Virus record (IMG/VR): IMGVR_UViG_3300028920_000061
Location: 17,023-81,022 of that record
DNA length: 64,000 bases
Direction: 5' to 3' (one strand)
Source of the DNA: a virus
The stretch's first letter is position 1. Each line of letters opens with the position of its first letter. The position numbers and the translations under genes were made by a program. The notes under the pieces were generated by a model that saw only the letters and a program-made list of their open reading frames with translations, made no database searches and was not told the origin of the DNA. Below are positions 7,589 to 21,261 of the stretch, one piece after another.

Positions 7589-8008
7589 ATGCCACCATGC
7601 TCAACATGTAACGGCGCATGCTGTTACCTATTTATGTTACGATGGTCGAAAAGGGATCTTCTGTTAAGACTGTCCGGAAAAGGTATGTTTCGAAATCTTA
7701 AAGTTTCAACTTTTGAAATAATCAAACAGCTAACCTTTCTTCGCGATGCAACCAGTCAATTTGAAAAGAATCGGGATCCATCGGTAAGATTTTTCACCTG
7801 TCTCGCCTTCTCTAATAACAGATGTTCTATTTATAAATACAGAATGGCCTTTTGTGAACCATACGATTGCAAAGGAACCAAACAAATAGCTCATACTATG
7901 TCACTTGATGGAAAACCGCCGCTCCCAATAATGAATCAGGAGGTGGATATTGACAGACAAACAGATTATAGCCTGCAAGTTGCCCGGCGACCTGTTCTCA
8001 TCTCCTGA
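7589..8008 (+). CDS. YkgJ-like Cys-cluster (Zn/Fe-chelating) protein
   Basis: CSTCNGACC ... CLAFSNNRCSIYKYRMAFCEPYDC pattern; AAGGAG RBS before ATG 7589. Confidence 0.75.
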   Translation: MPPCSTCNGACCYLFMLRWSKRDLLLRLSGKGMFRNLKVSTFEIIKQLTFLRDATSQFEKNRDPSVRFFTCLAFSNNRCSIYKYRMAFCEPYDCKGTKQIAHTMSLDGKPPLPIMNQEVDIDRQTDYSLQVARRPVLIS

Positions 8009-8954
8009 AAACATGGAGAAGGAATTCACCGAGCTTGCCCAGCGTTGGCATCCGGACAAGATGGGCGGCAACAGCATTGTTATGGCTCATGTGAATTCTC
8101 TTCATGCGCAGGGGAGGGAGATGGTTGCATCCGGCAATTGGAAATCATCCAATAAACGATTTTTCACCCTCTCTAATGGCAGAACTGTTCGTATAAGCTT
8201 TCTGTCTGAAAATGATTTTGAACTCGGCAAATGGTACCTCTGCGAATCGGTTTGTGTCTATGCTTTCAATACTGGCTCTGCAATAAATTTCAAACTTCCG
8301 AAATTCAGATTTCGCAATACCAGTATGACAGATGAATTTACCGCATATTTGCCAAGAATTATCGACCAGTATGAAGTAAACAACGGGAAAAAGCTCATTG
8401 TCATTAATCGTGAGAAAGACCTTGTTCTTCTACGCGATTTGTTGGCATGGTTTGGAAATGCAGTACCGCCAAAGCATGTAGCGTGGATTCTCAGCTCCCT
8501 TTACAACCTTTGTGCTTTCTTCAAATATAATGGAATTGTTCACCATTCCATTAATCTGAATACATATTTTATTTCCCCAGCAAAACATAAAGGGGTCTTG
8601 CTTGGCGGGTGGTGGTATCACAAAGGGTTCGACCGTCGAATGAAAGTAGTACCAAAATCAACATACGACGTGATGACTCTAGACACGAAAAAGTCCAAAA
8701 AAGCCACGCCCATTACCGATCTCGAATGTGTAAAACTTATAGGTCGTCAGCTTCTTGGAAGTGCCAGTGGGAGCACGCTATATTCCAATCCTGATATACC
8801 GAAGCCAATGATACAATTCCTGAGAACCATCTCGTCTGAGAATGCCTACAAGGAATATGAGGCCTGGACGAATGTTCTACAAGAAAGTTTCGGCCCAAAA
8901 AAATTCATTGAGATGGATTGCAACGCGGACGAAATTTACAAGAAGCCATCCTAA
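7950..8954 (+). CDS. J-domain (HPD) fused to degenerate kinase-like domain
   Basis: LAQRWHPDK J-motif; C-terminal HVAWILSSL...GIVHHSIN...LLGGWWY, a kinase-fold pattern seen next to vWA and PurA-like genes. Confidence 0.75.
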   Translation: MTDKQIIACKLPGDLFSSPENMEKEFTELAQRWHPDKMGGNSIVMAHVNSLHAQGREMVASGNWKSSNKRFFTLSNGRTVRISFLSENDFELGKWYLCESVCVYAFNTGSAINFKLPKFRFRNTSMTDEFTAYLPRIIDQYEVNNGKKLIVINREKDLVLLRDLLAWFGNAVPPKHVAWILSSLYNLCAFFKYNGIVHHSINLNTYFISPAKHKGVLLGGWWYHKGFDRRMKVVPKSTYDVMTLDTKKSKKATPITDLECVKLIGRQLLGSASGSTLYSNPDIPKPMIQFLRTISSENAYKEYEAWTNVLQESFGPKKFIEMDCNADEIYKKPS

Positions 8955-8994
8955 CAGGTGGATAATCAATAACTTATAACAAAAGGAGTGTTTC

Positions 8995-9249
8995 ATGGGT
9001 GAAGCACCAAAGGGCTTCGAGCCCGAAACTGCCGTTGAAAAAACTGCGGACACCACCACAGAAGAAGCCCAGGCGGCCCCAGAATCCACTGGAGGGCAGC
9101 GGTCTGAAGAAGCTGCCGAAGAGGTTGCGTCGGAAGAGGCACCTGCAGAAGGCGGCTCAGAGGGCGCCGCAGAGCCTACAGCAGAAGATCCTGACGATGA
9201 ACCCTCTTCCGAGGTGCCTGAAGAGGACGAAAAAGCAGATTCCGAATAA
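8995..9249 (+). CDS. Highly acidic low-complexity protein
   Basis: AAGGAG RBS; E/A/P-rich 84 aa with almost no aromatic residues. Confidence 0.65.
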   Translation: MGEAPKGFEPETAVEKTADTTTEEAQAAPESTGGQRSEEAAEEVASEEAPAEGGSEGAAEPTAEDPDDEPSSEVPEEDEKADSE

Positions 9250-9338
9250 AAATCCAAGTAACTCCTTGATTCCAAGGCGGTTATTGTATCGGGAGACCCG
9301 AATGGGTCTCCCTTCACCATTTCAGAGAGGAATTCCAC

Positions 9339-10265
9339 ATGGGAAGTGGAAGAATGACAGCCGATGACTGGGGGGCATACTCGACCACCCATTTCGTAGA
9401 TCGTACAGTAGACAAGATCTACACCTCATCAACCATCGATTCCCGGTTCGATCCCAAGAAAATCACCATGAGAGAGTCGTGCGACTCTGATGACAATCCC
9501 GAATCAACAGCTGCTATCATCGCCCTGGATGTCACCGGTTCGATGTCTTATGTTCTGGAGGCAACTGCAAAGAACCTTGGCGTCCTGGTTCAGGAAGTCT
9601 ACGACCGGAAACCCATCACCGACCCCCACATGATGTTCATGGGAATCGGAGATGCGGAGATGAGAGACGAATATCCACTTCAGGTGACTCAGTTCGAAGC
9701 CGACATCCGGATTGCCGAACAACTCAAAAACATCTATTTCGAACGTCATGGCGGCGGCAACTCTTATGAGTCATATGCGCTGGCGTGGTATTTCGCGGCT
9801 CTGAGGACCAAAATTGACTGCTTCGAGAAGAGGGGCAAGAAAGGCACCCTGTTCACCATCGGTGATGAGGGTCCCACGCCATACCTGAAAGCAGACGACA
9901 TCGAGTACACTCTCGGGGAACGTCCTCAGAAGGACTTCACCGACAAAGAGCTGCTCGAAATGGTCTCACGGCAGTACGACGTGTTCCATCTCATCGTTGA
10001 AGAAGGCGACTTCGCCAGCCGGCACGGCGGGGAAGTGATCAAGAAGTGGACGGAGCTTCTTGGCCAGAGAGCTATCCCGATATCCGACTGTACCAAAGTT
10101 GCCGAAGTGATCGTGTCCGTTCTTCAAGCCAATGCGGGTGAAGACAAGGATAAAATCATTTCCAGTTGGGATGGCGACACATCAGTCGTTGTTTCAAAAG
10201 CAATCAACGGTCTCACTAAATCCGATGGGGTGGCCTCCTCATCGGATGGCGTTGTGGAACTATAG
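9339..10265 (+). CDS. von Willebrand factor A (vWA) domain protein
   Basis: MIDAS motif DVTGSM, GIGD, GGGNSYESY, FTIGDE. Confidence 0.9.
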   Translation: MGSGRMTADDWGAYSTTHFVDRTVDKIYTSSTIDSRFDPKKITMRESCDSDDNPESTAAIIALDVTGSMSYVLEATAKNLGVLVQEVYDRKPITDPHMMFMGIGDAEMRDEYPLQVTQFEADIRIAEQLKNIYFERHGGGNSYESYALAWYFAALRTKIDCFEKRGKKGTLFTIGDEGPTPYLKADDIEYTLGERPQKDFTDKELLEMVSRQYDVFHLIVEEGDFASRHGGEVIKKWTELLGQRAIPISDCTKVAEVIVSVLQANAGEDKDKIISSWDGDTSVVVSKAINGLTKSDGVASSSDGVVEL

Positions 10266-10282
10266 TTTCACTTCGCCCGACT

Positions 10283-10322
10283 GCGCCCAGGTTTCGTTAG
10301 GGTTTCCTGGGCGCTTTTTTTC
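10283..10322 (+). terminator. Intrinsic terminator
   Basis: GCGCCCAGG...CCTGGGCGC followed by T7. Confidence 0.75.
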
Positions 10323-10337
10323 TGGAGGATTTGTTAT

Positions 10338-10676
10338 ATGACTTACCCACATCCAGGAGTCGATGCCTGGGAAAGCTACAAAGAGGAAAATCCCATGGAA
10401 CTGAAAGTTCTTTTCTTCTGGGCCCCATGGTGCGCCCCATGCAAACTTATGAGTCCAGGATTTGATGATGCCTCAAAAGCAAATCCGAATATAAAATTCG
10501 AAAAAATAAATGTTGATCAGGATGACGCAACTCCAAACAGATATGGGGTATATGTTATCCCGTCAATATGTTTTTGCATCAATGGGCTTCTCTATCATAC
10601 TCATATCGGTATAATGACAGAATCTTCAATAAATGATGAAATTATGAAAATGAAAAAAGAAATCGAAAGTGGATAG
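10338..10676 (+). CDS. Thioredoxin
   Basis: FWAPWCAPCK, KINVD, YGVYVIP. Confidence 0.9.
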   Translation: MTYPHPGVDAWESYKEENPMELKVLFFWAPWCAPCKLMSPGFDDASKANPNIKFEKINVDQDDATPNRYGVYVIPSICFCINGLLYHTHIGIMTESSINDEIMKMKKEIESG

Positions 10677-10697
10677 ATTATTTGAAAGGAAGAATTT

Positions 10698-11873
10698 ATG
10701 AGAATCAAAGCAATAATTGGAAGTGGCATGGGTGATGAAGGTAAGGGTCGCATGACCGAATACTTTTCCGACAGCAAATCAATTGTTGTACGATTCAACG
10801 GAGGGGCACAAGCTGGTCATACTGTCGTACTTTCTGACTGGGCGCGTCATGTATTTCATCATTTTGGAAGTGGGAGCCTGCATGGTGCTCAAACATATCT
10901 GAGCAAATTTTTTATTGCCAATCCGATGTTCTTCTGTCGAGAGCGTAGAGAACTTCTGGCGAATTTTCAATGTAATCCTGATGTTTATATCAGTCCGTTT
11001 TGTTTTGTTACGACACCATGGGATATGATCATTAATGATCTAACAAATCAGAAAAACCAACATGGTACCTGTGGATTTGGCATTAACGAGACTGTTGAAC
11101 GATGTCAGAAGATGACATTAAATGTCAGTACGCTTCAGGCGGACTACTTTGACGACCTTCTCATGCACATCGTCAATGACTGGGTTCCGGTAAGAATTGA
11201 AGAGCTTGGGCTTGAGCCCGACGCAACATACCGCAAATGGCTTTCAAGCGAGAAGATGATAGACAATTTCAAAGATGATGTCAAATCATTTCTCAATTGG
11301 GTAACGATAGGAGACCCAAACTTTGACTTTGCCGAACAAGTCATTTTTGAAGGCGCTCAGGGACTCATGCTCGATCAGAATCATGAAAATTTCCCATATG
11401 TTACCAGGTCGAATACGGGAACCGGAAATGTCCGCGAACTGATTGAGGATTTTCATCTTCACGATGAACTGGAAGTGACATACGTTACCCGGTCATATGC
11501 GACCAGGCATGGGGCCGGACCTTTACTTCATGAGGATAAGACTCTCCAATATGGCGACCCAACAAACGTTCCAAACAGGTTTCAGGGAAGTCTACGATAT
11601 GGCCTTCTCGATATAAATCAAATTGTTCATGAAATCAATCAAGATATGGTAAATCTAAACGGCCTGGAGTACAATCCAAGTATTGCAGTCACCTGCCTGG
11701 ACCAAAATCCCGGATATTGTATCTGGGATGGTAAGGAAGAGCGCTTGTCACACAGTGAGCTATGCAAGCACGCTCTTGCGGACAATCTCCAGTTTAGCAA
11801 GGCGTATGGGTCCATTGGCCCCAGAACAACTGATCACATGAAAGTGTGGGAAAGGAAAGGGGTGCCAGTATAA
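10698..11873 (+). CDS. purA: Adenylosuccinate synthetase-like protein (divergent PurA family)
   Basis: GDEGKG, RFNGGAQAGHT, FEGAQGLMLD, FPYVTRS, TRHGAGP; canonical TTGR aspartate loop replaced by TNVPNRFQG. Confidence 0.85.
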   Translation: MRIKAIIGSGMGDEGKGRMTEYFSDSKSIVVRFNGGAQAGHTVVLSDWARHVFHHFGSGSLHGAQTYLSKFFIANPMFFCRERRELLANFQCNPDVYISPFCFVTTPWDMIINDLTNQKNQHGTCGFGINETVERCQKMTLNVSTLQADYFDDLLMHIVNDWVPVRIEELGLEPDATYRKWLSSEKMIDNFKDDVKSFLNWVTIGDPNFDFAEQVIFEGAQGLMLDQNHENFPYVTRSNTGTGNVRELIEDFHLHDELEVTYVTRSYATRHGAGPLLHEDKTLQYGDPTNVPNRFQGSLRYGLLDINQIVHEINQDMVNLNGLEYNPSIAVTCLDQNPGYCIWDGKEERLSHSELCKHALADNLQFSKAYGSIGPRTTDHMKVWERKGVPV

Positions 11874-12226
11874 TGGCTGAAGTAGCGCTGGTCAAAATCA
11901 CTTGTTGCGCCGAAGGTTACCATGTTCCATTCTGGATATCGGCAGCGCACAATTCGCATCTTCATGATACGCATGAATGGTTCTATTGTCCGAATGGTCA
12001 TCAACAGCATTACCCGCAGGAGACCGACGAAGAAAAATTCAAGCGACTCTACGAATTCGAAAAGAAAAATCGGGTTCAGGTAGAGCGTAGAGCAGAAAGA
12101 AATTACCAGAATTTTGAACAACAGATTCGATATACAGCGGCGCAGAAAGGGCTCGTTACAAAACTTCGCAAACAACTGAGGGAAAAGAATGAAAGAGATA
12201 ATCTACCCAAACGGGGAAACGCTTGA
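11873..12226 (+). CDS. Hypothetical protein with Cys/His motif and coiled coil
   Basis: FYCPNGHQQHY followed by a coiled coil; ATG overlaps the purA stop. Confidence 0.65.
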   Translation: MAEVALVKITCCAEGYHVPFWISAAHNSHLHDTHEWFYCPNGHQQHYPQETDEEKFKRLYEFEKKNRVQVERRAERNYQNFEQQIRYTAAQKGLVTKLRKQLREKNERDNLPKRGNA

Positions 12227-12452
12227 CTTTGAAACAAAAAAAGAGAAGCCAAGTCTTAAAGAACTGCAGAAAGCGGTTGGGGGGTACATTGAGTTGGTTC
12301 AGCTTCTTGATGGCAATATCATGATCATAAATGAAGAAGGGAAGCTCAACGATCTTGAGCCGAACCATGTTGCTACTGAAAAAGCGTTTCCTAAAGGTGG
12401 TGATATTATTGTCGGGAATGCTGTCGTACTTTCACCGGAGTTGATGATCTAA
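12189..12452 (+). CDS. DUF3846-like protein
   Basis: LKELQKAVGGYIE...INEEGKL..L.PN...IVGNAV. Confidence 0.75.
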   Translation: MKEIIYPNGETLDFETKKEKPSLKELQKAVGGYIELVQLLDGNIMIINEEGKLNDLEPNHVATEKAFPKGGDIIVGNAVVLSPELMI

Positions 12453-12676
12453 TGCCAGAAATTATTATAACCATAGCAGCCAAAGAGCTGGATCATGAGC
12501 AGCTTGATGAGGTTCGATATACAATTGAAAAGGTGGCTTCTTTGTTAGCAAATTCAAAGCCACCAAGCTTAAATGAAGTTATGGCGAATGCGTTAACAGG
12601 CACATTACCTGAGATGAGAACTCCAACCATGGTAATGAAAGCCACTTATGATTACATGCGGGGGAATCGTGGGTGA
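12452..12676 (+). CDS. Hypothetical protein
   Basis: Translationally coupled (TAATG). Confidence 0.55.
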   Translation: MPEIIITIAAKELDHEQLDEVRYTIEKVASLLANSKPPSLNEVMANALTGTLPEMRTPTMVMKATYDYMRGNRG

Positions 12677-12820
12677 ATACATGATACCAGCAGATGAGTT
12701 TATTGACGGGTTCGAAGACTTCCTTCGTAACTTTGAAGGTAATGTGTCAGCGGAATGTGTAGCCGAAGCGTGGAACAGGCTGGCTGAAAAATACGAATGG
12801 TCTGATAAGTTATTTGCCAA

Positions 12821-13027
12821 ATGAAAAGAAAAAGAATTGATATACCCAATGACGCGGTTCGGTCACTTGACTGGTTATGTGAAAAATGTGGCGAATCGCG
12901 TCCTGGGTGTATTTTAAGATTAATAGCAATGGGAGTTCGTGAAACAGAACTTTTTCTTCAAAGAAAGAAGTATCAAGAAGTTATCAATCGGTGGGGAGAA
13001 CCTACTCGAAAGATGGTCAAAAAATGA
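12821..13027 (+). CDS. Small basic protein, possibly ribbon-helix-helix
   Basis: MKRKRIDIPNDAVRSLDWL...SRPGCILRLI pattern; last gene before the cassette array. Confidence 0.5.
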   Translation: MKRKRIDIPNDAVRSLDWLCEKCGESRPGCILRLIAMGVRETELFLQRKKYQEVINRWGEPTRKMVKK

Positions 13028-13091
13028 AAGTTTGTAATACAAGGAGTTATGCAAAACTCTAGTCATGCTTTTTATTGATCGGAGGTTGCTT

Positions 13092-13322
13092 GTGTTTCAA
13101 ATAATGTTAGCATCATTCATAACAGGGTTTGTGTGTTTCTTGCTTGGTTGCTGGTATCAGCAACGCAACAGTAACACTAAGGTAGGCACTCCTTCCGCAT
13201 CGCACAACAGGCCAATTATGCAAGTTTGCCCTGTGTGCGGTAGTAGCGTTTCTTTACAACCATCTTTGGGTGCAAATATATACGGCTGTTGCAAGTGCGA
13301 GTGGTACGGCAAACCAGCATAA
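13092..13322 (+). CDS. Cassette 1: membrane anchor plus CxxC...CxxC zinc ribbon
   Basis: GGAGG then GTG 13092; hydrophobic N-terminus; the CPVCG...CCKC tail is encoded inside hairpin 1. Confidence 0.6.
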   Translation: MFQIMLASFITGFVCFLLGCWYQQRNSNTKVGTPSASHNRPIMQVCPVCGSSVSLQPSLGANIYGCCKCEWYGKPA

Positions 13323-13378
13323 GTTGGCCGAACCGTTGTCGGCAATATCTGTTGAACCATAATGTAAAGGAGTGCCTA

Positions 13379-13696
13379 ATGGCAAATTTTCGTAATCAAC
13401 TTACCGACCTTATCAACTGTCACTCGCTAGAGAACGGCAGTGATACTCCAGACTACATCTTGGCAGCATACTTGGATGGTTGCCGCAAAGAATTTGACGC
13501 TGCCGTTAACGCCCGTGCTCGGCACTCCTCAGAACAAGAGGTGTCAACAGAGAAAGCCGACAACAGCGACTATGCGGCGGCGCTTGAAGTGTGGGGCGAG
13601 TTTTTGAACACGTTCGTGATAACAGAAAGCGATAATAAGGTTTTTCCAGAGTGGTGTCGTAAGCGCCTCAATTCGGAGAAACCGAACTGCGCATAA
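13379..13696 (+). CDS. Cassette 2: hypothetical protein
   Basis: AAGGAG RBS; LINCHSLENGSDTPDYILAAYL is a recurrent small-phage-protein pattern. Confidence 0.75.
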   Translation: MANFRNQLTDLINCHSLENGSDTPDYILAAYLDGCRKEFDAAVNARARHSSEQEVSTEKADNSDYAAALEVWGEFLNTFVITESDNKVFPEWCRKRLNSEKPNCA

Positions 13697-13745
13697 TCGC
13701 AAACGTTGTACAAAATTTGTGCGCTTTTGAATTGGAGGTTGCGCC

Positions 13746-13949
13746 GTGAAATATTGTAAGGTTGAATTTATGTGCGATTGGTATCCGAACGATACGAGTA
13801 AATGCCCTCACCGTGTTTTAGATAAGTACCGTGATTGCATTTACGAAAATATTATTGCCGAAAACTATGCTATTTGTGGCAGCGAAGAGGCGCAACGGGA
13901 AGCTATGGAAGCGCACAAACTTCGTACAACAGGCCAAGTGTCGCAATAG
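13746..13949 (+). CDS. Cassette 3: Cys-rich hypothetical protein
   Basis: GGAGG RBS, GTG start. Confidence 0.65.
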   Translation: MKYCKVEFMCDWYPNDTSKCPHRVLDKYRDCIYENIIAENYAICGSEEAQREAMEAHKLRTTGQVSQ

Positions 13950-14020
13950 TCAAAGCACTACTGCGCACGTTGGCCGGAACGTTGCAGGCCATAGGGGCTG
14001 AACCATATTGGAGGTTGGTA

Positions 14021-14302
14021 GTGGTGCAAGTAAAGTGGTTGCAGATATACAAGTGTCGTGACTGTTGGCACCTTGAGCCGAGTTACGGAACTGGTGATAG
14101 GCGTTGCGGATTAACTGGGCGCAAGTGTGAATATGTCCCCGGCGTTGGGTGGTATGAGGATGTGCCGGAATGGTGTCCACTACCAACAGCAGAATCGGAG
14201 TCAGCCCCAACAGGCCAACAACAGTCCGCAGGAACGCCATTGTCGCAGGATTATGGAATAAATAAACGGTTGGAGCGCGAACAACAGCGTCCGTGCGGCT
14301 AA
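14021..14302 (+). CDS. Cassette 4: Cys-rich protein (CxxC...C...PEWCPL)
   Basis: GGAGG RBS; CRDCWH...RRCGLT...VPEWCPLP. Confidence 0.65.
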   Translation: MVQVKWLQIYKCRDCWHLEPSYGTGDRRCGLTGRKCEYVPGVGWYEDVPEWCPLPTAESESAPTGQQQSAGTPLSQDYGINKRLEREQQRPCG

Positions 14303-14348
14303 TCGTTGTAGGTCATAGCTGGTGAACCATATTGTAAAGGCGGTCAAC

Positions 14349-14639
14349 ATGGATTTTGAAAATAGAAAGAAGTTGCGCGAGAAGTACCGAGAAGAAACTG
14401 GATTTATGTGGAAGGTTCCACACCCAAAGTTTCTGCTTGCATCAGAGGGGTATGTCATGTGGCTTGAAGACCGCCTTGAAAAGGCGGAGTCACCAGCAAC
14501 GAACCCACAACAAACGCAGCCTGCCATTGCTCAACTCTGGGAACGGTATTCTGGTATTATGCCTGACGATACTCTGGAGAAACGTGCTTGTATTGCTAAT
14601 TTTGTCAGATATGTTGAGCAACAACAGGCGGGTGCGTAA
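14349..14639 (+). CDS. Cassette 5: hypothetical protein
   Basis: LREKYREETG...YVMWLEDRL; stop lies inside hairpin 5. Confidence 0.65.
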   Translation: MDFENRKKLREKYREETGFMWKVPHPKFLLASEGYVMWLEDRLEKAESPATNPQQTQPAIAQLWERYSGIMPDDTLEKRACIANFVRYVEQQQAGA

Positions 14640-14696
14640 TCAGTTGTGCGCAATCAACTGGCGAGTCTACATTGTAGGCCGCCGAAGGAGGTAAAG

Positions 14697-14900
14697 ATGA
14701 AAGGATTTATCGGTTTGATTATTGTGGTTCAAATTGTAGTGTACATCGGGATGGTGTCACTGGTCGGATGGGGCCTCTGGACTGGCGCAAGATATGTGTC
14801 AAAGCACGGCGTAAAATCAATTGTAGAGGAAATGTGGAACGGGTCGGCGGCAGAAAAAGAGGGTTCGCCAGTTGACAACACACAACAGCCGCAGCACTAA
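14697..14900 (+). CDS. Cassette 6: single-pass membrane protein
   Basis: AAGGAGG RBS; long hydrophobic helix followed by HGVKSIVEEMWNG. Confidence 0.7.
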   Translation: MKGFIGLIIVVQIVVYIGMVSLVGWGLWTGARYVSKHGVKSIVEEMWNGSAAEKEGSPVDNTQQPQH

Positions 14901-14977
14901 ATACTATCGTACTTCGTGCGAGTGCGGCGATACGTTGTGTGTTCGCTTCGCAAATTTTAACCTTTGGAGTATTGTAA

Positions 14978-15250
14978 ATGGAAATACATTGTTGCGGTTG
15001 CGTTGCTGAAGATATTTGTGAGGCTGTTCAGGGCGATAATAGATGTCTTGATTTCCATAAGGCTTTGGAAGCGGTTAAAACGTCACACAACAGCGCTAGT
15101 ACGCAATATTTTCCCGATGAAAAGGAGATGAAACATGCCGCGAGTCAGTGGATTGATTACCTAAGCACTATAGATTCAACATACTCTGACTTAGAGCAAA
15201 CTTTTATACAGGGAGTACGATGGGGTATCGGCCAACTGCCGGGCAAGTAG
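14978..15250 (+). CDS. Cassette 7: hypothetical protein
   Basis: GGAG RBS; Cys-rich N-terminus; more than half of the ORF lies within hairpin 7. Confidence 0.6.
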   Translation: MEIHCCGCVAEDICEAVQGDNRCLDFHKALEAVKTSHNSASTQYFPDEKEMKHAASQWIDYLSTIDSTYSDLEQTFIQGVRWGIGQLPGK

Positions 15251-15296
15251 TGCGAGACGTTTTGTGAATATGCCGATGTAAAATGCAAATGGAGGT

Positions 15297-15617
15297 GTGA
15301 TTAAACATGAAAGCTATAGTATTCGGATCAGAAGGTTGTGTGAAAGTCCAGTCAGCTTTTTAACAATTGGAGGCGGCATGCCACATTTCAGCGAAGAAGA
15401 AACGATTTCGATAATCAAACGTCTGATTGAGTTAGCAGAAATCAAGGAAGGGCGCCTCAAATCTAAGGAGTTGGCTACTTCACCCAACAACCGCTATGCG
15501 ACGGCGCTTGAGGTGTTGAATGAGTATGAAGAGGATGATTCATATTCTCCCAACGAACCGCCGTTTGAGATATGGCTCAAGTTGCGCCTAAATGCCGATG
15601 GCACTTCGCATAGCTAA
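15297..15617 (+). CDS. Cassette 8: hypothetical protein (start may be ATG 15378)
   Basis: GGAGG before both candidate starts; C-terminal tail homologous to cassette 2. Confidence 0.6.
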   Translation: MIKHESYSIRIRRLCESPVSFLTIGGGMPHFSEEETISIIKRLIELAEIKEGRLKSKELATSPNNRYATALEVLNEYEEDDSYSPNEPPFEIWLKLRLNADGTSHS

Positions 15618-15679
15618 ATCGTTATAGTCAATAAATTTGCCTTCTGATAGTATAGTCAGCTGGTAAGAAAGGAATTATT

Positions 15680-15832
15680 ATGCCATTGTATACAGTATCA
15701 GCAGATTGTCCAATCACGGAGTACGAAGCTGATGATGAAATGGGTGCTATCGAACAGTATTCTGAGAATTATCGTGTTAATTACAAGTTTTGTTCAGCAA
15801 CAAAGTGTGATGAACCCGCTGAAGAAGAATAA
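15680..15832 (+). CDS. Cassette 9: 50-aa acidic protein (not in ORF track)
   Basis: AAAGGA RBS; MPLYTVSADCPITEYEADDEMGAIEQ...AEEE*. Confidence 0.6.
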   Translation: MPLYTVSADCPITEYEADDEMGAIEQYSENYRVNYKFCSATKCDEPAEEE

Positions 15833-15937
15833 GGTGGGCAAATTTACAGCAACCAACAACCGTATGGTGTTCGTTTCACGAATGCGGGTATGCACTTCAC
15901 CATACTTTCCCGTTATAGGCTGTTTGAGGAGGCTTTT

Positions 15938-16204
15938 ATGGATATAGCAAATTTGACCCGATACACTATTGATTATGTTCCAGACTCTTGTGATGGTGAT
16001 TATGTTCAGCATAATGTAAGCAAGGATGGCGAGTATGTCAAATTTGAGGAAGCTATGGAAGCCTCCTCAAACAGCCTACAACAGCTAAAGGCTGAAATTT
16101 TAGCACTACGCAAAGATGGTGTAGTTGCAGACGATATGTATTGGATTGGTTGGAACATGGCCCTTGAACGTACTGCTGGTATGCTAAAACAATCAGCCGT
16201 TTAG
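15938..16204 (+). CDS. Cassette 10: hypothetical protein
   Basis: GAGGAGG RBS; LTRY...DGEYVKFEEA pattern. Confidence 0.7.
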   Translation: MDIANLTRYTIDYVPDSCDGDYVQHNVSKDGEYVKFEEAMEASSNSLQQLKAEILALRKDGVVADDMYWIGWNMALERTAGMLKQSAV

Positions 16205-16250
16205 CAAACATTGTCGGTAATCGGTTGTCAAATTATAGAAGGGCGGCAAA

Positions 16251-16562
16251 ATGAAGTTGAAAATGCACTCGTTTGATTTTGGTGAAAACACTCTGACATT
16301 TAGTATTCCCGCTGCTACTATGGAGTCCCATGCTTGGGGTAATGTCCCTGATGGTGTAGATGTAGACCTGTCCAAGGTGACTAATGACGTTGCCCTTGGG
16401 ACTAATGGAACAACCGACTCCGCTGGCGCTACCGACAACATCGCAAGGGACGAAATATTGCGCTGTATCACGTACATAGATAATTATTTATCGGCTGGCA
16501 ATATTGAATCGGCTCGCAAATGGTGCAACGAAGTACGCGCAATACTATCGCCCGTTGCGTAA
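16251..16562 (+). CDS. Cassette 11: hypothetical protein
   Basis: ORF ends within hairpin 11. Confidence 0.6.
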   Translation: MKLKMHSFDFGENTLTFSIPAATMESHAWGNVPDGVDVDLSKVTNDVALGTNGTTDSAGATDNIARDEILRCITYIDNYLSAGNIESARKWCNEVRAILSPVA

Positions 16563-16599
16563 CCGTTGCACGCCAGTTTTGATTTTGGAGATTTGTATT

Positions 16600-16782
16600 A
16601 TGTCAATATTGCCTAAACGTTGCAAATGTGGCAGATGGTCGTGGAGTATTCGGCGTAGAAGATTAAACACAGCCTACGTTGACGAGGAAAGAAATTATAT
16701 GTACTCGTGTCGCGAGTGCTATGAAGAGGCTTACGAATACTACGCCGAACGATGGGCGGATTATTATGCTAATTGCATGTAG
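16600..16782 (+). CDS. Cassette 12: small Cys-containing protein
   Basis: GGAG RBS; CKCG...RRRLNTAYVDEERNY..SCRECYE...YYAERWADYY. Confidence 0.7.
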   Translation: MSILPKRCKCGRWSWSIRRRRLNTAYVDEERNYMYSCRECYEEAYEYYAERWADYYANCM

Positions 16783-16823
16783 GAAGTGCAAAACCAGCAT
16801 GCAACAACAGCCGGAGGTAAAAA

Positions 16824-17066
16824 ATGCAAGAACAAAGAGAAAAAGCCCATTCGATATTACGCAAGGCATTCGATGAGGCTGGAATAGCAGATGGGTTTTA
16901 TTGTGGTGTTTTAATGGATGGAACTGATGTATCCGCGTACAGTGTCGGACGTGAGAATAAGGCAGAGTATTCTAACGTAGAGCGGTATCAACGCCTTCTC
17001 GGTGTTGTTGAATCGTGCAAATACTCATTATTGGTCAAAGCTCACGAAAAGCAGGAAAAATCATGA
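16824..17066 (+). CDS. Hypothetical protein
   Basis: GGAGG RBS. Confidence 0.6.
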   Translation: MQEQREKAHSILRKAFDEAGIADGFYCGVLMDGTDVSAYSVGRENKAEYSNVERYQRLLGVVESCKYSLLVKAHEKQEKS

Positions 17067-17175
17067 AAGGTTTTGTCACCCCACAACAATGATGTTATTT
17101 TTTTTCACTTTGTGGAATAGTAATAATATACAGATCTTTTGAAATATCATATATTCTACAACAAAGGAGGAATTC

Positions 17176-17937
17176 ATGGCAAAGGTCCATGAAATTGTTG
17201 CTGTCGAGAAAGACGTGAAGGGCACATTCAATAAGATGCTGGGTGAAACTCGCATGACATTCCTGAAGGGTGAGCATTTCGATGAGCACCTGAAAGAATA
17301 CCAGCCGCTCAATGCTGACGATCGTGAACAGCTCGATGCCGAACACAAGCCCATGGCTGACACTGTCCCCAGCAAGTTGTCATATTTCATGGGGCATATG
17401 AAGAGAATGTTCGACTTGGTGATACAGAAAGAAGTATCCAATCTGGACGCCAAAGCTGATGTCACTGTTCAAACAGACAGTGGTGATGAAGTTGTTTTGT
17501 ACGAACAGGCTCCGGTTGCGGCTATTGTTCAGCTTACCAATCTGATGGAAAGCGTTCGGATTCAGGTTCTTTTGAATATCCCCACGCTTGATCCGGCAAG
17601 ATCCTGGGCATCCGACGGAAATCGTCAGGACGTGTTTGTCACCCCCGAAGTCAGACGCGCCAGAACCAAGAAGGTGCAGGTCCCTATCGAATTGTCGCCG
17701 GCTACAGACAGACACCCGGCGCAGGTTCAGCTTGTCACGGAAGATGTGACTACCGGCCACTGGGTGCAGAAGTACTGGTCCGGTAAGATATCTTCGGCTG
17801 ACAAGTCAATGATTCTGAAACGAACCGACGCCCTCATAGCAGGCCTCAAAAGAGCCAAGTCGAGGGCTAATGAGAGTGAGGCGAAGAAGGTTGCCATAGG
17901 CGATCGCTGCGCCAAATGGATTTTGACAGGAGAATAA
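17176..17937 (+). CDS. Conserved helical hypothetical protein upstream of a structured RNA
   Basis: Strong AAGGAGG RBS and own promoter motif (17094). K-x-HEI-x-AVEK, Y-x-P...D-x-EQL, IPTLDP, RTKKV...AT-D-RHPAQV are motifs of a widespread uncharacterised family (recognised from memory, not searched). Confidence 0.85.
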   Translation: MAKVHEIVAVEKDVKGTFNKMLGETRMTFLKGEHFDEHLKEYQPLNADDREQLDAEHKPMADTVPSKLSYFMGHMKRMFDLVIQKEVSNLDAKADVTVQTDSGDEVVLYEQAPVAAIVQLTNLMESVRIQVLLNIPTLDPARSWASDGNRQDVFVTPEVRRARTKKVQVPIELSPATDRHPAQVQLVTEDVTTGHWVQKYWSGKISSADKSMILKRTDALIAGLKRAKSRANESEAKKVAIGDRCAKWILTGE

Positions 17938-17943
17938 TCAATT

Positions 17944-18322
17944 GGACGTATACTGAATTCGGGCTGGGGGACCAAATGAACCCGGCCCCGTCATATTCAG
18001 ATTCATGTTGATGGGAGTAGTTTTTACGAAACCGCTCATGTTATTGCGTCCTATGTTCAGGTTTATAACCTCAAAAACTTTTGATGCCGACACTAACACC
18101 TGTAACGAGAGTTCAAATCTCTCCCCGCCATCCAGAAATCAAAAATCATTTTTGGTTTCTCGATGGCGGGTAGTCCAGTGGTAAGACACAGGCATGATGT
18201 TTATGCTCGGTACGTCGATAGTCAAGAGGTGAAAAAAAATTCGTAATGAATACCAACACTTGAACTGTTGATTTATTCAATAAGTGGCGGGGTGGCAGGA
18301 TACGTCTGCCCCGCCTTTTTTT
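17944..18322 (+). ncRNA. Structured ncRNA with circularly permuted tRNA-like domain (YrlA/Y-RNA-like topology)
   Basis: T-arm GAGAG-TTCAAAT-CTCTC (18107-18123), acceptor-like helix CCCGCCATC/GATGGCGGG closed by a hairpin, TA, D-arm GTC-CAGTGGTAA-GAC, CCTGT/ACAGG closing helix; flanking long-range helices; no long ORF; ends in a terminator. Confidence 0.8.
18286..18322 (+). terminator. Intrinsic terminator
   Basis: GGCGGGG..GCAG / CTGCCCCGCC followed by T7. Confidence 0.8.
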
Positions 18323-18346
18323 ATTTTGGTTACAACATTTTTTTAG

Positions 18347-18422
18347 CCGTTAGACTAACGGAAAATCTGGTATAACTATAATAGGCAAGAGAATTCACTC
18401 TTGTCTATTTCCGTCGGAGGAA
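18347..18422 (+). repeat. Promoter-leader-RBS module, copy 1
   Basis: 18361-18422 matches 18825-18886 at 59/62 nt; includes TGGTATAA, a leader hairpin and GGAGG. Confidence 0.9.
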
Positions 18423-18425
18423 ATA

Positions 18426-18734
18426 ATGGTAGCCCTTATCACAAAAACAATAAAATACGAATGCCACATTTATGAAGAGTCTGATGACGCGGCTGAAGAA
18501 TTAGTTAAGATGGTTGATGAATGTCAACCTCATATTATTAAAATCCCCAAAGATATTGAAAAGTTTGCTAATGATTATAATATTTTTATTATATACAAAC
18601 TTCCCGGGGAAGGAAATCCAACTATAAAAGAATTTCTGTCAAAACCTGATGAATTTCGGCGATTTGAATGGCATGATACCATTCATGAGATGGGGCTTCG
18701 TAATCGCTTAAAAAATGGCGTTGGGGAATCGTAA
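18426..18734 (+). CDS. Hypothetical protein
   Basis: Driven by module copy 1. Confidence 0.7.
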   Translation: MVALITKTIKYECHIYEESDDAAEELVKMVDECQPHIIKIPKDIEKFANDYNIFIIYKLPGEGNPTIKEFLSKPDEFRRFEWHDTIHEMGLRNRLKNGVGES

Positions 18735-18810
18735 ATCCCCCGGTCCGAAAGGCCCGTTAACCGGCTGCCCTCCACAGATACTGACATATCTGTGAAGGGC
18801 TTTTTTTTAC

Positions 18811-18886
18811 CCGTTAGAATAGAAGAAAATATGGTATAACTATAATAGACAAGAGAATTCGCTCTTGTCTATTTCCGTCGGAGGAA
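18811..18886 (+). repeat. Promoter-leader-RBS module, copy 2
   Basis: Near-identical to copy 1. Confidence 0.9.
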
Positions 18887-18892
18887 TTCATT

Positions 18893-19057
18893 ATGTCACA
18901 ATATTTTTATAACCAATTCTATTTTAATGCGCAATTTCTTCCACATCTTCTAATAGATGATTATGTAGACGGTGGTAGCAGACGAAAGAGGAAAACCGAC
19001 CCAGTCGATATGGCTGACAAATTCATCGCGAGAATGGAGATTGACTGGAGGGAATGA
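18893..19057 (+). CDS. 54-aa hypothetical protein (not in ORF track)
   Basis: GGAGG RBS; MSQYFYNQFYF...EIDWRE*. Confidence 0.6.
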   Translation: MSQYFYNQFYFNAQFLPHLLIDDYVDGGSRRKRKTDPVDMADKFIARMEIDWRE

Positions 19058-19101
19058 TTTCTCTCCTTTTTATCCATCAGGTTGGCAAACCCTTTGCCCA
19101 T

Positions 19102-19133
19102 AAAAAACCCCTCCCGAGGGAAAACGGGAGGGG
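19102..19133 (-). terminator. Intrinsic terminator of the virion gene cluster
   Basis: A6 then CCCCTCCCG/CGGGAGGGG hairpin on + (hairpin plus T6 on -), downstream of the portal-like gene. Confidence 0.75.
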
Positions 19134-19188
19134 CCGGAGGTCGCACCTCAAGAAGAATAGAAAAGGTGCGTGGCCAGCAACAGGCTGG

Positions 19189-21261
19189 TTAAATCTGCGA
19201 ACTCACTTTCGACCCAGGCGGTCGCTGTTCAGGAAGAGCTGCAATATCAACTCCAGCTTCCGCCGGACCTGGCGGCTCTTCTCCATACGTGTCCCCCTGA
19301 GTTGTTGAAGGTATCTGCCCAGGTGTGTATTTCTGGACAGTCTCCATATCTGGTTTTGTATCTGCAAGAATAACATTCATCTCCTTCAGGTTCGAATAGA
19401 CCTCCTGATAGAGAGATGGCATGGAATTCTTCATGGCAAGCATTCTAATCTTGAATTCTTCAGGATTAATATCAGCAAGTCTTGCAAATCGCTGTGTAAT
19501 AATCATTATCAGGTTCGGAACTGAGATTTTGCCCGGATCCATACCTCTCTGCTGACTAAGTGCGGCAGTTTCCTGCGCAACCCCTTCAGCGTTCATCATT
19601 CTCTGCTCTTCAATCTGCTGCTCACGAGTAGCCTGATACTCTCGCTCGTTTTGTTCCATACGGCTACGATTGGCAAGCTCAGCATCAGCAGCATACATCG
19701 CATTTACAACTGTGGCACCACCAGCAGCCTCAGCCTCACCTTCAGCGGCTTTGACCTTCATTTCAATCATTCTCTTGAGTTCCTGCTCTTTGAGATTGTA
19801 TTCTTTCTCAGGATCAAGACCAAGCTCTTTTTGCATGGATGTACGGGAAATAAGCGATGTCGCCGGGTCATCCCCTGCGTTTCTCATCATCATTTCCTTC
19901 TTCTGAAGATCGTCAGCCATTTTGAAGTCTGACATTTTGATATCAATTGTCGGTATACTGAAATAGGCTGAAGTCTTATTCTTCACCCAGTCTATAAACT
20001 CGATCATATCATTACGATGATTGAGAAACGTGTTCTCAACAACACGCAGGGATACGTTACTTCCAGACCATGATGCTCCACCACGAATAATTTCAGGTAT
20101 CATCCCAACACCGGTAATGATATCATCTTCAACGAATTTCAACTCTTGAGAAATCAAAAGTAGTTTTGCATCGCCGCTGAAATTTTGCATTCCAAGAGGT
20201 AACGGTACGATTGACACGTAGTTCGGGTCTGCTCTCCACTTTCGTATCTCATCCTCGACTTTGGTTCTCCAGCTACCAAGGTTCATTATGGCATGAGGAC
20301 TGACATCGCCTTGAGACATTGGAAACAGAATTCGAAGAGGCACGATATGATCAAACGCAATCATCTCGTTGCCCTTCTTAAGAACCCTGACGTGGAATAT
20401 GTCTTTCAAAACAGGCATAACCGCGGGTATTCCCCAACCTCTCTGACCGGGTATGAGATATTGGGGCCCTGGGCGCTTGAGGTGATACACGTTGTCTGAA
20501 AGAAGCTTCAGCTGCTTACGCTTCTGAACCGCTTCAATAACTTCAAGCCTGAGAGTGCTGACAATATCCATATCCCCCTGACGAACCGCTGTAGCAATAG
20601 ATGGCGGTATAGTATAGTAATAGAAATGGTCGTCAGAAATGGGATTGTATTTAATGTCAATAAATGTGAGATCCCAGGAAATGATAGACATCTTGGACAT
20701 CTCTCGACTGTTCACATCACGGGCTTCCATTACCCCGTTGTATCCACAGTCTTTTTTGATGCACTTCGCGACAAACTTGAAATTCTTGAAAGAAGCGTTG
20801 AGACCTTCCGCCGTATGCTCTTCATTGCATTTTGGGCATTTCAGCATGCGTTTGAACGGATAGTGAATTGACATTATCGAATTGCCATAAGCGTAATAAT
20901 CCATTCCACACTGTTTGAGAACGCGAGTCATTTTCATATGATCTTCAAACAGTTTTTTCCACTTATCGACAGTCTTGTCATTTTCCAGATTAGCCGGCTT
21001 TTCCTCATCACCATATATGAGGTCGGTGATGGGATATTCAGACATCTTATTGACGCATTGTGATATCAGACCATCGCCAAGAACAAAAGAAGCAATAAAT
21101 GATATGAGACTCTTGATGGTCTTAGGAAGGAACGTGGATGTCATATCAAGAAACGGGCTATCGTACTTGATAGAACCACGATGAAACGTAACCGGCGTAG
21201 TGGTAGAAGTACTTGTACTGGTGGCCGCGGTAACCAGCCCCTGTCCTGACAAATCAGCCAT
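19189..21261 (-). CDS. Portal-like protein with zinc-finger insertion
   Basis: DYYAYGNS, VYHLK...RGWGIP, helical wing/crown pattern, SR...KELGLD; CPKC...CIKKDC insertion. Confidence 0.65.
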   Translation of the reverse strand: MADLSGQGLVTAATSTSTSTTTPVTFHRGSIKYDSPFLDMTSTFLPKTIKSLISFIASFVLGDGLISQCVNKMSEYPITDLIYGDEEKPANLENDKTVDKWKKLFEDHMKMTRVLKQCGMDYYAYGNSIMSIHYPFKRMLKCPKCNEEHTAEGLNASFKNFKFVAKCIKKDCGYNGVMEARDVNSREMSKMSIISWDLTFIDIKYNPISDDHFYYYTIPPSIATAVRQGDMDIVSTLRLEVIEAVQKRKQLKLLSDNVYHLKRPGPQYLIPGQRGWGIPAVMPVLKDIFHVRVLKKGNEMIAFDHIVPLRILFPMSQGDVSPHAIMNLGSWRTKVEDEIRKWRADPNYVSIVPLPLGMQNFSGDAKLLLISQELKFVEDDIITGVGMIPEIIRGGASWSGSNVSLRVVENTFLNHRNDMIEFIDWVKNKTSAYFSIPTIDIKMSDFKMADDLQKKEMMMRNAGDDPATSLISRTSMQKELGLDPEKEYNLKEQELKRMIEMKVKAAEGEAEAAGGATVVNAMYAADAELANRSRMEQNEREYQATREQQIEEQRMMNAEGVAQETAALSQQRGMDPGKISVPNLIMIITQRFARLADINPEEFKIRMLAMKNSMPSLYQEVYSNLKEMNVILADTKPDMETVQKYTPGQIPSTTQGDTYGEEPPGPAEAGVDIAALPEQRPPGSKVSSQI

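Follow-up and report, generated by a model that had tools for sequence, protein, structure and literature searches.

Integrons are gene-capture devices of bacteria, whose recombination sites are recognised by their shape rather than by their sequence. The attC sites of these systems are described to contain R boxes of the consensus RYYYAAC and GTTRRRY, an unpaired central spacer with 5–6 bases in each arm and, close to L'', extrahelical bases in one of the two arms formed by the bottom strand, which is the more stable and recombinogenic of the two strands (PMC5027507). Clusters of attC sites lacking an integrase (CALINs), for which a minimum of two attC sites is required, have been reported in virulent phages, with sites that are recombined by IntI1 (Qi et al., 2023, PMC9892861). 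Further described systems of related appearance include rAID-1 of Bacteroidales, which carries the gene of a XerD-like recombinase at the 5' end of its array (Ross et al., bioRxiv 10.1101/471110), the promoter early stem-loop (PeSL) elements of T4-type phages, where conserved promoter and stem-loop repeats are recombined by homology (PMC2839356, PMC4122927), and engineered attC sites that were embedded in sequence serving another purpose (Nivina et al., 2020, PMC7439510). Here we characterize a row of small genes in a stretch of 64,000 nucleotides, hereafter termed the window, which covers positions 17,023 to 81,022 of the IMG/VR virus record IMGVR_UViG_3300028920_000061 (81,022 bases, about 45% complete). 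This row is probably an array of mobile gene cassettes with integron-like organization, which belongs to the CALIN type but carries non-canonical attC-like sites and occupies a fixed variable locus in a lineage of large marine-sediment phages. The original prediction of a platform for cassettes, whose junctions follow the logic of integrons, was made from the letters of the window and is supported by the presence or absence of cassette 1, the mosaic detected in a second sample, relatives with either none or at least 13 other cassettes and a bias of the hairpin stems towards the bottom strand, whereas its description as an undescribed system was overstated, since clusters of attC sites without integrase in virulent phages have been published (PMC9892861).

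The array spans positions 13046–17087 of the window on the + strand, between an early-gene block containing PurZ and the late genes, and it comprises 12 co-oriented cassettes with short genes and a 13th gene at its end. Its borders had initially been placed at 13030–16805 and are to be corrected, as sequence data place the earliest junction at the GTT of position 13046 and the end is formed by the ACAAC at 17083–17087, while the 12 same-strand genes and the 11 hairpins of 53–173 nt, which extend from AAC to GTT (in one case ATT), were confirmed. Each unit starts with GTT(G/A)(T/C), except for the one beginning with ATT, and continues with a 5' untranslated region (5'UTR, 40–44 nt long in 6 of the 12 units) and a small open reading frame (ORF), with an ACAAC core located about two thirds along the ORF. 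After this core, the unit folds into an imperfect hairpin extending up to the following GTT, which in 8 of 11 units is reached 2–12 nt past the stop codon. Conservation between junctions is limited to 5–7 nt. A cassette would be defined as the segment from one G/TT to the next G/TT, with its 3' part forming an attC-like imperfect hairpin. The units are arranged as follows (z-scores of folds refer to dinucleotide shuffles):

13046..13334, + strand: cassette 1; gene 13065–13322; ACAAC 13204–13208; hairpin 13204–13339 closes; arms weak.
13335..13704, + strand: cassette 2; gene 13379–13696; arms 13335–13378/13521–13564; hairpin 13560–13709; fold z −5.1.
13705..13980, + strand: cassette 3; gene 13746–13949; arms 13705–13726/13909–13930; hairpin 13926–13985 (z −3.2); fold z −3.4.
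13981..14304, + strand: cassette 4; gene 14021–14302; arms 13981–14026/14177–14222; hairpin 14218–14309; fold z −3.8.
14305..14642, + strand: cassette 5; gene 14349–14639; arms 14305–14347/14469–14511; hairpin 14507–14647; fold z −3.2.
14643..14933, + strand: cassette 6; gene 14697–14900; arms 14643–14685/14844–14886; hairpin 14882–14938; fold z −3.4.
14934..15258, + strand: cassette 7; gene 14978–15250; weaker arms 14934–14977/15048–15091 (z −2.6); weak hairpin 15087–15263 (z −0.1).
15259..15620, + strand: cassette 8; mini-ORF 15308–15364; gene 15378–15617; arms weak (z −0.9); hairpin 15487–15625 (z −4.0) with stem GCTATGCGA/TCGCATAGC.
15621..15911, + strand: cassette 9; gene 15680–15832, ending before the core; ACAAC 15856–15860; hairpin 15856–15916; fold weak.
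15912..16209, + strand: cassette 10; gene 15938–16204; arms 15912–15957/16037–16082, including Shine-Dalgarno sequence and start codon; hairpin 16078–16214, ending with ATT; z −8.1.
16210..16564, + strand: cassette 11; gene 16251–16562; weak arms (z −2.3); hairpin 16435–16569 (z −2.4); own partner not the best.
16565..16808, + strand: cassette 12; gene 16600–16782, ending before the core; arms 16/22; ACAAC 16804–16808; z −2.1; own partner not the best.
16809..17087, + strand: end segment and right border of the array; gene 16824–17066; minimal GTTTTG...CACAAC module 17070–17087.

The mini-ORF in cassette 8 encompasses 18 codons with its own Shine-Dalgarno sequence and is located in an unusually long leader of 119 nt.

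The defining property of the array is the complementarity between the 20–46 nt that follow each GTT and the stretch that ends at the ACAAC of the same cassette. Due to this pairing, the two ends of a cassette would rebuild a single long hairpin in an excised circle, with the crossover triplet placed in its middle. The four inverted repeats that were initially named are all recovered by a repeat finder, with arms at 13335–13355/13544–13564 (21 nt, 86%, cassette 2), 13705–13726/13909–13930 (22 nt, 91%, cassette 3), 14643–14685/14844–14886 (43 nt, 72%, cassette 6) and 15912–15957/16037–16082 (46 nt, 80%, cassette 10). The proposed arm length of about 20 bp was correct in exceeding the R box of 7 bp but too short, since the arms span the Shine-Dalgarno sequence and the start region and reach 40–46 nt. 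In a scan for arms of 22 nt anchored on GTT...AAC with a spacing of 40–450 nt and a cut-off of at least 18/22, the 81,022 bases of the record contain five pairs corresponding to four stems, which are all confined to the array, whereas the same scan of 69 unrelated phage loci (2.26 Mb, both strands counted) returned a single pair. Unanchored long-range repeats are found at a frequency of 0.037 per kb in 80 other loci. In minimum-energy structures calculated with RNAfold, nine of the 12 cassettes are closed by pairing between GUUGU and ACAAC (z-scores of −2.1 to −8.1), so that the comparison with shuffled controls is in favor of genuine folds in these cases, while the folds of cassettes 1, 8 and 9 are weak. 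The arms are specific for their partners even if the shared core of 5 nt is excluded, with the own partner being the best in 9 of 11 rows and a mean pairing energy of −30.9 kcal/mol for own partners compared to −15.3 ± 3.9 kcal/mol. The equivalent comparison of hairpin halves (for hairpins h1 to h11) identifies the own partner as the best in 7 of 11 rows. The ends of these hairpins pair in the minimum-energy folds of h1–h6 and h11, and inner stems are found in h8–h10. Seven of the 11 lengths are inside the range of 57–141 bp of attC sites, while the hairpins of 53 and 56 nt fall below it and those of 146 and 173 nt exceed it.

Cassettes 2, 4 and 5 contain homologous 5'UTRs and carry matched changes in their 3' arms (TCTGTTGA, GCTGGTGA and GGGGCTGA). 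The hairpins h1 and h3 have ACAACAGGCCAA...TTGGCCG..CGTTG in common, and h2 and h8 are identical in 21 of 23 nt directly after the core. The claim that the hairpins are not copies of each other is thus in need of revision for h1/h3, h2/h8 and for h9, which has a homologue in a relative. In the arrays of the window, of a 168-kb relative and of a contig from an Ignavibacteria bin, both described below, the spacer measures 1 nt after ACAAC and 4–5 nt before GTT. An extra base located about 6 bp into the stem, in the 3' arm of the top strand, is found in h1, h3, h10 and h11 and in sites of the 168-kb relative and the Ignavibacteria-bin contig. Such an attC-like site would consist of ACAAC, 1 nt, a stem interrupted by this extra base after about 6 bp, a loop of variable sequence, the return of the stem, 4–5 nt and GTTG(T/C). 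Within 27 arm pairs from five sequences, positions 1–9 are paired in 222 of 243 cells, while in 20 of the 27 a mismatch is found at position 10 as well as at position 11, and AA is placed opposite CA in 13 of the 27. Positions 10–11 are a conserved unpaired feature, and the combination of pairing at 1–9 with a mismatch at 10–11 across different sequences indicates that the design is conserved and not accidental.

The core itself acts at the nucleotide level. The heptamer ACAACAG occurs in 18 copies in the 81-kb record, 10 of which are located within the array (0.9 expected), there always on the + strand, whereas none of the 11 copies of its complement in the genome is found inside the array. 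The ACAAC core is distributed over the three reading frames, with 1, 5 and 4 genes, and placed outside of the ORF in two cassettes, and it thus constitutes a nucleotide signal rather than a protein motif. The 'linkers' of the cassette proteins, which are rich in T, N and Q, are a by-product of this core. As 10 of the 12 cassette ORFs read through ACAAC, the attC-like sites appear to be built into genes, and since the sites lie within ORFs, the 3' arm is predicted to be translated as a linker and the interior of the hairpin as C-terminal tail. Ten cassette proteins do not match any Pfam family, and the only hits in PHROGs among cassette proteins are the N-terminal domain of g2 and a weak match of g6. 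The 48–62 N-terminal residues of g2 have 69 relatives in IMG/VR, none of which aligns past residue 64. A search of the array against Rfam returned nothing but one sub-threshold chance match, and ARAGORN did not detect a tRNA in it. Terminator-like sites number 7 in the array compared to 4.1 ± 1.9 in shuffles, and later junctions do not contain any; in general the scan of the array for promoters and terminators was uninformative and a conserved promoter-terminator unit was not seen.

The composition of the hairpin stems holds information on the nucleic acid that folds. An RNA structure of the sense strand would tolerate G.U oppositions and avoid A.C. In the stems of the hairpins, counted on the top strand and pooled over the arrays of the window, the 168-kb relative and the bacterial bin, we find 2 G.U compared to 26 A.C oppositions (the latter made up of 16, 8 and 2 cases; binomial p = 3e-6). 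Few G.U and many A.C oppositions on the top strand imply that the bottom DNA strand folds better, as is described for attC sites, and the duplex energy of the bottom strand is lower in 8 of 11 hairpins.

Direct evidence for variation in content was obtained from contigs of two public marine-sediment runs, which were compared with positions 9000–21000 of the window. The flanks of the array are assembled as single long contigs with a depth of about 42–43 (42.4 for the flank), whereas the array is found in pieces. In the source sample, a joint from 13045 to 13335 skips 289 nt with the three letters GTT in common (depth 21.1), while a second path covering 13019–13364 retains cassette 1 (depth 17.4) and a third departs at 13048 (depth 8.9). 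Cassette 1 is present or absent within one sample, with a cut exactly at GTT/GTT. Contigs of this sample break at 13032, 13364 and 13703, and the contig ending at 13032 and the one starting at 13703 are each located beside a GTT, in the latter case 2 nt before it. The second sample contains a mosaic, in which homology is lost at three cores: at 13334/5 ahead of GTTGT, at 13209 behind ACAAC-A and at 16213 within ATTGT. Variation extends to the loops of the hairpins, with one variant skipping 13583–13685 inside the loop of h2 (depth 7.1) and another, in the second sample, 15515–15600 inside the loop of h8, both of which keep stem and cores. A joint from 12843 to 14600 does not match any core. 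The relative in the second sample also displays dense point changes at 14750–14806 in cassette 6 (7 in 57 nt) and at 16111–16181 in cassette 10 (11 in 71 nt), with almost no point changes in the flanks listed for these two stretches. The array is a hot spot of divergence in sequence as well as in content.

A similar picture emerges from related genomes, which show that the content of the locus is not fixed. In a 6.6-kb metagenome contig (L122), where PurZ is followed by a small gene, DUF3846 and a DUF7873 protein with 61% identity to the neighbour of the array, the array is absent and the homology to the window restarts at 17088, the base directly after the last ACAAC. A search of a genome collection with a pattern based on h1 and h3, for which about 0.02 chance matches are estimated, identified the 168,390-base contig CAZUBH010000002.1. 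This contig is a syntenic phage genome that was binned as part of a metagenome-assembled genome of a Thermoplasmatales archaeon, and on the basis of this bin one might wrongly assign its array to an archaeon. The portal protein shares 78% and PurZ 51% identity with the respective proteins of the window and the late module is collinear, whereas relatives of the portal protein among cultured phages are only about 30% identical. The array of this relative occupies the same locus, split over both ends of the contig, and contains at least 13 unrelated cassettes, with eight arm pairs at ≥17/22 at the PurZ end and five to six more cassettes at the late-gene end, where two pairs at ≥16/22 and further ones by eye were found. 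The window and this relative do not have any cassette ORF in common; a homologue of h9 is found at one end of the relative, and its contig also contains an 18-nt identity to an arm of cassette 2. On the minus strand of its array-end stretch, at about 17990–18090, a hairpin loop resembles the D-arm and T-arm of a tRNA, although ARAGORN does not detect a tRNA in this stretch.

Two features are located directly upstream of the array:

12821..13027, + strand: small upstream gene, 68 amino acids; ORF without Pfam family, with the look of a ribbon-helix-helix protein by eye only.
13032..13042, strand not assigned: 11-bp palindrome TTGTAATACAA between the stop codon of the upstream gene and the first junction; a contig of the source sample ends at 13032.

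A small gene of similar appearance is located at the matching position of the 168-kb relative and the upstream gene may belong to the system. The palindrome could possibly serve as protein-binding or attI-like element.

The same design is also found in unrelated sequences. In a 3.6-kb contig from an Ignavibacteria bin, the second match of the h1/h3 pattern in the genome collection, AT-rich genes alternate with GC-rich sites of the form GCACAAC-A-stem...stem-N5-GTTGTGC, and the ends of its cassettes pair at 19/22, 19/22 and 22/26 positions (by eye, with one indel) over distances of 670–1160 nt. Three contigs in IMG/VR contain the same pattern, one of them with six cassettes at ≥18/22. One of these six, at 7719–9152 of the stretch from IMGVR_UViG_3300031707_000086, encodes a C5 cytosine DNA methyltransferase of 454 residues (PF00145, E = 3.5e-51), which is likely an anti-restriction cargo. 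Other searches define the limits of this distribution. A comparison of the array by blastn with 50,697 phage records did not return a match, scans of IMG/VR with the single proteins DUF7873 and PurZ did not identify a relative and a pattern based on the g2/g8 tails found nothing in the same database. Arms of the described kind are absent from 69 IMG/VR loci containing homologues of the N-terminal domain of g2, and such arrays are absent from loci with relatives of DUF7873 (50 from IMG/VR and 80 from metagenomes), which include L122 as empty locus. A 14-mer probe of 301 genomes from the phylum of the Ignavibacteria bin was dropped, as its 32 matches in 27 genomes compare to 26 matches of a reversed control and thus correspond to chance level.

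In the mechanism that we propose, the sites would fold as single-stranded DNA and a structure-specific recombinase would cut and rejoin at GTT/AAC, with cassettes moving as circles. The enzyme, which presumably acts in trans, might be an integron integrase of the host, a Xer-like enzyme or a member of another class. As originally stated, the window does not contain an integrase, and searches with PF00589 and PF00239 remain without match even in the entire 81-kb record. A recombinase catalytic domain is not present among the 25 Pfam families listed, out of 31 found, for 70 ORFs of the record. The earlier proposal that a tyrosine recombinase of the host or a distant phage is used retains its status as a conjecture, since a tyrosine recombinase was not found in five phage records with such sites. 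The Ignavibacteria bin encodes a true integron integrase (TIGR02249, 425 bits at a cut-off of 265) and a shorter Xer-like enzyme, neither of which was placed beside sites of this design. The DNA beside this IntI contains a different repeat, and copies of the element from the 3.6-kb contig in the same bin are located on contigs without a recombinase match.

Several observations weigh against our assignment. On the side of the enzyme, PF00589 is without match in all five phage records containing such sites (the 81-kb record, the 168-kb relative and three IMG/VR records, one of which is 100% complete), the same applies to PF00239 and TIGR02249 in the about 45% complete 81-kb record, and recombinase loci fetched from two bins do not contain chain-complementary cassettes within about 1.5 kb. 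The sites deviate from the R-box consensus, as all 12 cores are ACAAC with A in place of Y and 7 of 11 sites have GTTG(T/C) with a pyrimidine in place of R, so that the fit is limited to the AAC/GTT triplets and one site even contains ATT. The spacer of attC sites is described as 5–6 nt on both arms, compared to 1 and 4–5 nt here, and the extra base is located on the arm opposite to the one described for attC (PMC5027507). The long arms do not show a strand bias if the conserved loop is excluded (G.U 23, A.C 21), and a preference for the bottom strand that was found in an early count disappeared once the conserved A.C at position 11 was removed. These arms overlap with ribosome-binding sites, which makes a role in expression possible. 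Breaks at ACAAC instead of GTT, at 13209, in the joint from 15085 to 16078 (depth 2) and at the right border at 17087, are not predicted by a crossover confined to R'. Circle junctions were not seen in contigs of the two runs. The joints are known from contigs only, their sides measure just 22–46 nt and the window itself may have been derived from the main sample. Finally, if the DNA of the phage carries 2-aminoadenine, a recombinase of the host would face modified sites. The phage might use 2-aminoadenine instead of adenine, as judged from a PurZ-like enzyme encoded in its sequence.

This enzyme is an adenylosuccinate synthetase-like protein at 10698–11873 of the window (PF00709, E = 4.7e-43; PHROG '2-aminooxy adenylosuccinate synthetase'), and PurZ is also found in the 168-kb relative and in L122. 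Other genes of the 81-kb record include an RRM_1 protein (E = 4.6e-19) at record positions 15620–15961, upstream of the window, whose family is in control genomes restricted to Synechococcus and Bacteroides. Pfam matches in the pooled 70 ORFs comprise Tad2-like (anti-Thoeris), ThiF, radical SAM, thioredoxin and MerR proteins, a Gp3-like 'recombination directionality factor-like' domain, SNF2 and MCM.

Among alternative explanations, a passive modular shuffling, with cores and related 5'UTRs serving as micro-homologies in the absence of a dedicated site-specific recombinase, survives best, although we consider it rather unlikely. In such a PeSL-like process, hairpins would juxtapose successive GTTGT cores on a single-stranded template, replication slippage would delete cassettes and recombination during co-infection would generate mosaics. 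This would account for the lack of a recombinase in five phage records and for breakpoints on both GTT and ACAAC cores, and it would fit the eight joints listed, which are all skips and never circles or changes of strand, in contigs that drop rare forms. It is also consistent with 5'UTRs that are common to cassettes and phages, including the 18-nt identity. However, the conserved core encompasses merely 5–7 nt and PeSLs are described as repeats of promoter plus terminator, whereas no such conserved unit is found in the array. Moreover, the geometry is fixed across unrelated phages and a bacterial-bin contig, consisting of a box of 9 bp, the 2 x 2 loop formed by positions 10–11, a 1 x 4–5 spacer and an extra base 6 bp in. 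Related cassettes show concerted changes in their two arms, and the stems of the hairpins favor the bottom strand, so that all of these features look like selection for a recognised structure.

The folded sites could instead be handled by an enzyme of a different class, such as a single-stranded DNA transposase or a nuclease (HUH/Y1-type, HNH or other) encoded by phage or host, which we regard as distinctly improbable. A tyrosine recombinase is lacking in the phage record that contains such a site and is 100% complete, as well as in the 168-kb relative, the genome encodes HNH and PD-(D/E)XK nucleases, and the boxes adjacent to the core and in the stem look direct and not inverted (in h1, h3 and h11, CGTTG precedes CGTTGT by about 12 nt, by eye). 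Conversely, HUH or transposase families are not present among the 25 Pfam families listed out of 31 for 70 ORFs, and the AAC/GTT triplets, the bias to the bottom strand and the layout closely mimic attC.

A structure at the level of mRNA, in which long-range stems sequester ribosome-binding sites and limit translation to nascent transcripts or make it dependent on gating by an RNase or helicase, with the cassette look being secondary, had initially been favored but now appears very unlikely. It would explain arms that extend from GTT through the Shine-Dalgarno sequence and the start codon, the narrow range of 5'UTR lengths in half of the cassettes and the strongly negative z-scores of the folds. 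It was dropped in light of the strand bias of the hairpin stems, the lack of a G.U excess over A.C on the sense strand in hairpins (2 and 26) and arms (23 and 21), the DNA-level breaks at the cores, and the fact that arms of identical type bracket non-coding modules and cassettes of 670–1434 nt in other sequences, where they are located outside of ORFs. An Rfam match is also lacking. As for a multiple-inversion system (shufflon or inverton), where an invertase would flip segments flanked by GTTGT/ACAAC to turn genes on and off, the alternation of cores in inverted orientation and the inverted repeats around every segment would be compatible with it, but it is extremely improbable in view of listed joints in contigs that never change strand, imperfect and pair-specific arms that are explained by base pairing and not by a double-strand binding site, the lack of an open frame in inverted cassette 2 and the absence of an invertase in the PF00589 and PF00239 searches of the 81-kb record.

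Within the interpretation as integron-like array, exchange at both cores is a tentative extension. Recombination at GTT would swap entire cassettes, whereas recombination at ACAAC would swap an N-terminal module consisting of 5'UTR and domain against a C-terminal module encoded by the hairpin, resulting in a natural structure-guided shuffling of protein domains by a recombinase supplied in trans. Hints at the DNA level are the breaks and joints on ACAAC listed above (13209, 15085 to 16078, 17087). At the protein level, two cassettes of the 168-kb relative with unrelated N-terminal parts encode C-terminal tails that are 42% identical over 55 residues (E = 1.4e-7), and homologues of g2 found elsewhere align only to residues 40–64, with the AAC of the core corresponding to codon 62. 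The proteins g2 and g8 are not paired by blastp at E ≤ 0.01 despite the 21 of 23 identical nt after the core.

The comparison with described systems places the array closest to CALINs, with which it shares small co-oriented cassettes, imperfect hairpins from AAC to GTT, cassette starts that are complementary to the sequence before their own AAC, a variable loop, a better folding bottom strand, differences of whole cassettes at G/TT and the lack of a nearby integrase. A DNA methyltransferase as cargo of a sister array also has its counterpart in the phage CALINs (PMC9892861). Differences concern the core, which is (N)NACAAC / GTTG(T/C) instead of the RYYYAAC / GTTRRRY described for attC (PMC5027507), and the pairing from end to end, which covers 20–46 bp rather than 7 bp and includes the conserved loop of 2 x 2 nt. 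In addition, the sites are located inside ORFs and the array contains at least 12 cassettes, compared to the minimum of two attC sites applied to phage CALINs (PMC9892861). From a complete integron it is distinguished by the lack of intI in searches with PF00589, PF00239 and TIGR02249 of the about 45% complete record and with PF00589 of the 168-kb relative. With rAID-1, as described, it has rows of co-oriented accessory genes and structured intergenic elements reminiscent of integrons in common, whereas a XerD-like gene is not found in the five phage records; this comparison is based on the published description of rAID-1. It resembles PeSLs in their published description in that non-essential genes of small size occupy a variable part of a large phage genome and are shuffled as modules between relatives, but only 5–7 nt are in common, the pairing is cassette-specific and a conserved promoter-terminator unit is lacking. 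The literature searched in full text did not contain a description of a site design that combines the ACAAC/GTTGT core, the 1 x 4–5 nt spacer, arms of 20–46 bp and sites within ORFs. Integron logic would operate in phage genomes without an integrase and with a different site geometry, which a number of unrelated phages and a contig from a bacterial bin have in common. This points to a family of structure-specific recombination systems that is wider than IntI/attC. It also suggests that phages store cassettes and carry them along, in one sister array with a DNA methyltransferase. The 2 x 2 loop at positions 10–11, the 1 x 4–5 spacer and the extra base offer handles for experiments and engineering. 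Finally, as in synthetic attC sites, structure-specific sites are embedded in sequence of other purpose, yet while latter were engineered (PMC7439510), they are here natural components of coding sequence in 10 of 12 ORFs. With translated sites inside ORFs, the long-standing idea that hairpin sites embedded in coding regions shuffle protein modules becomes testable in nature.

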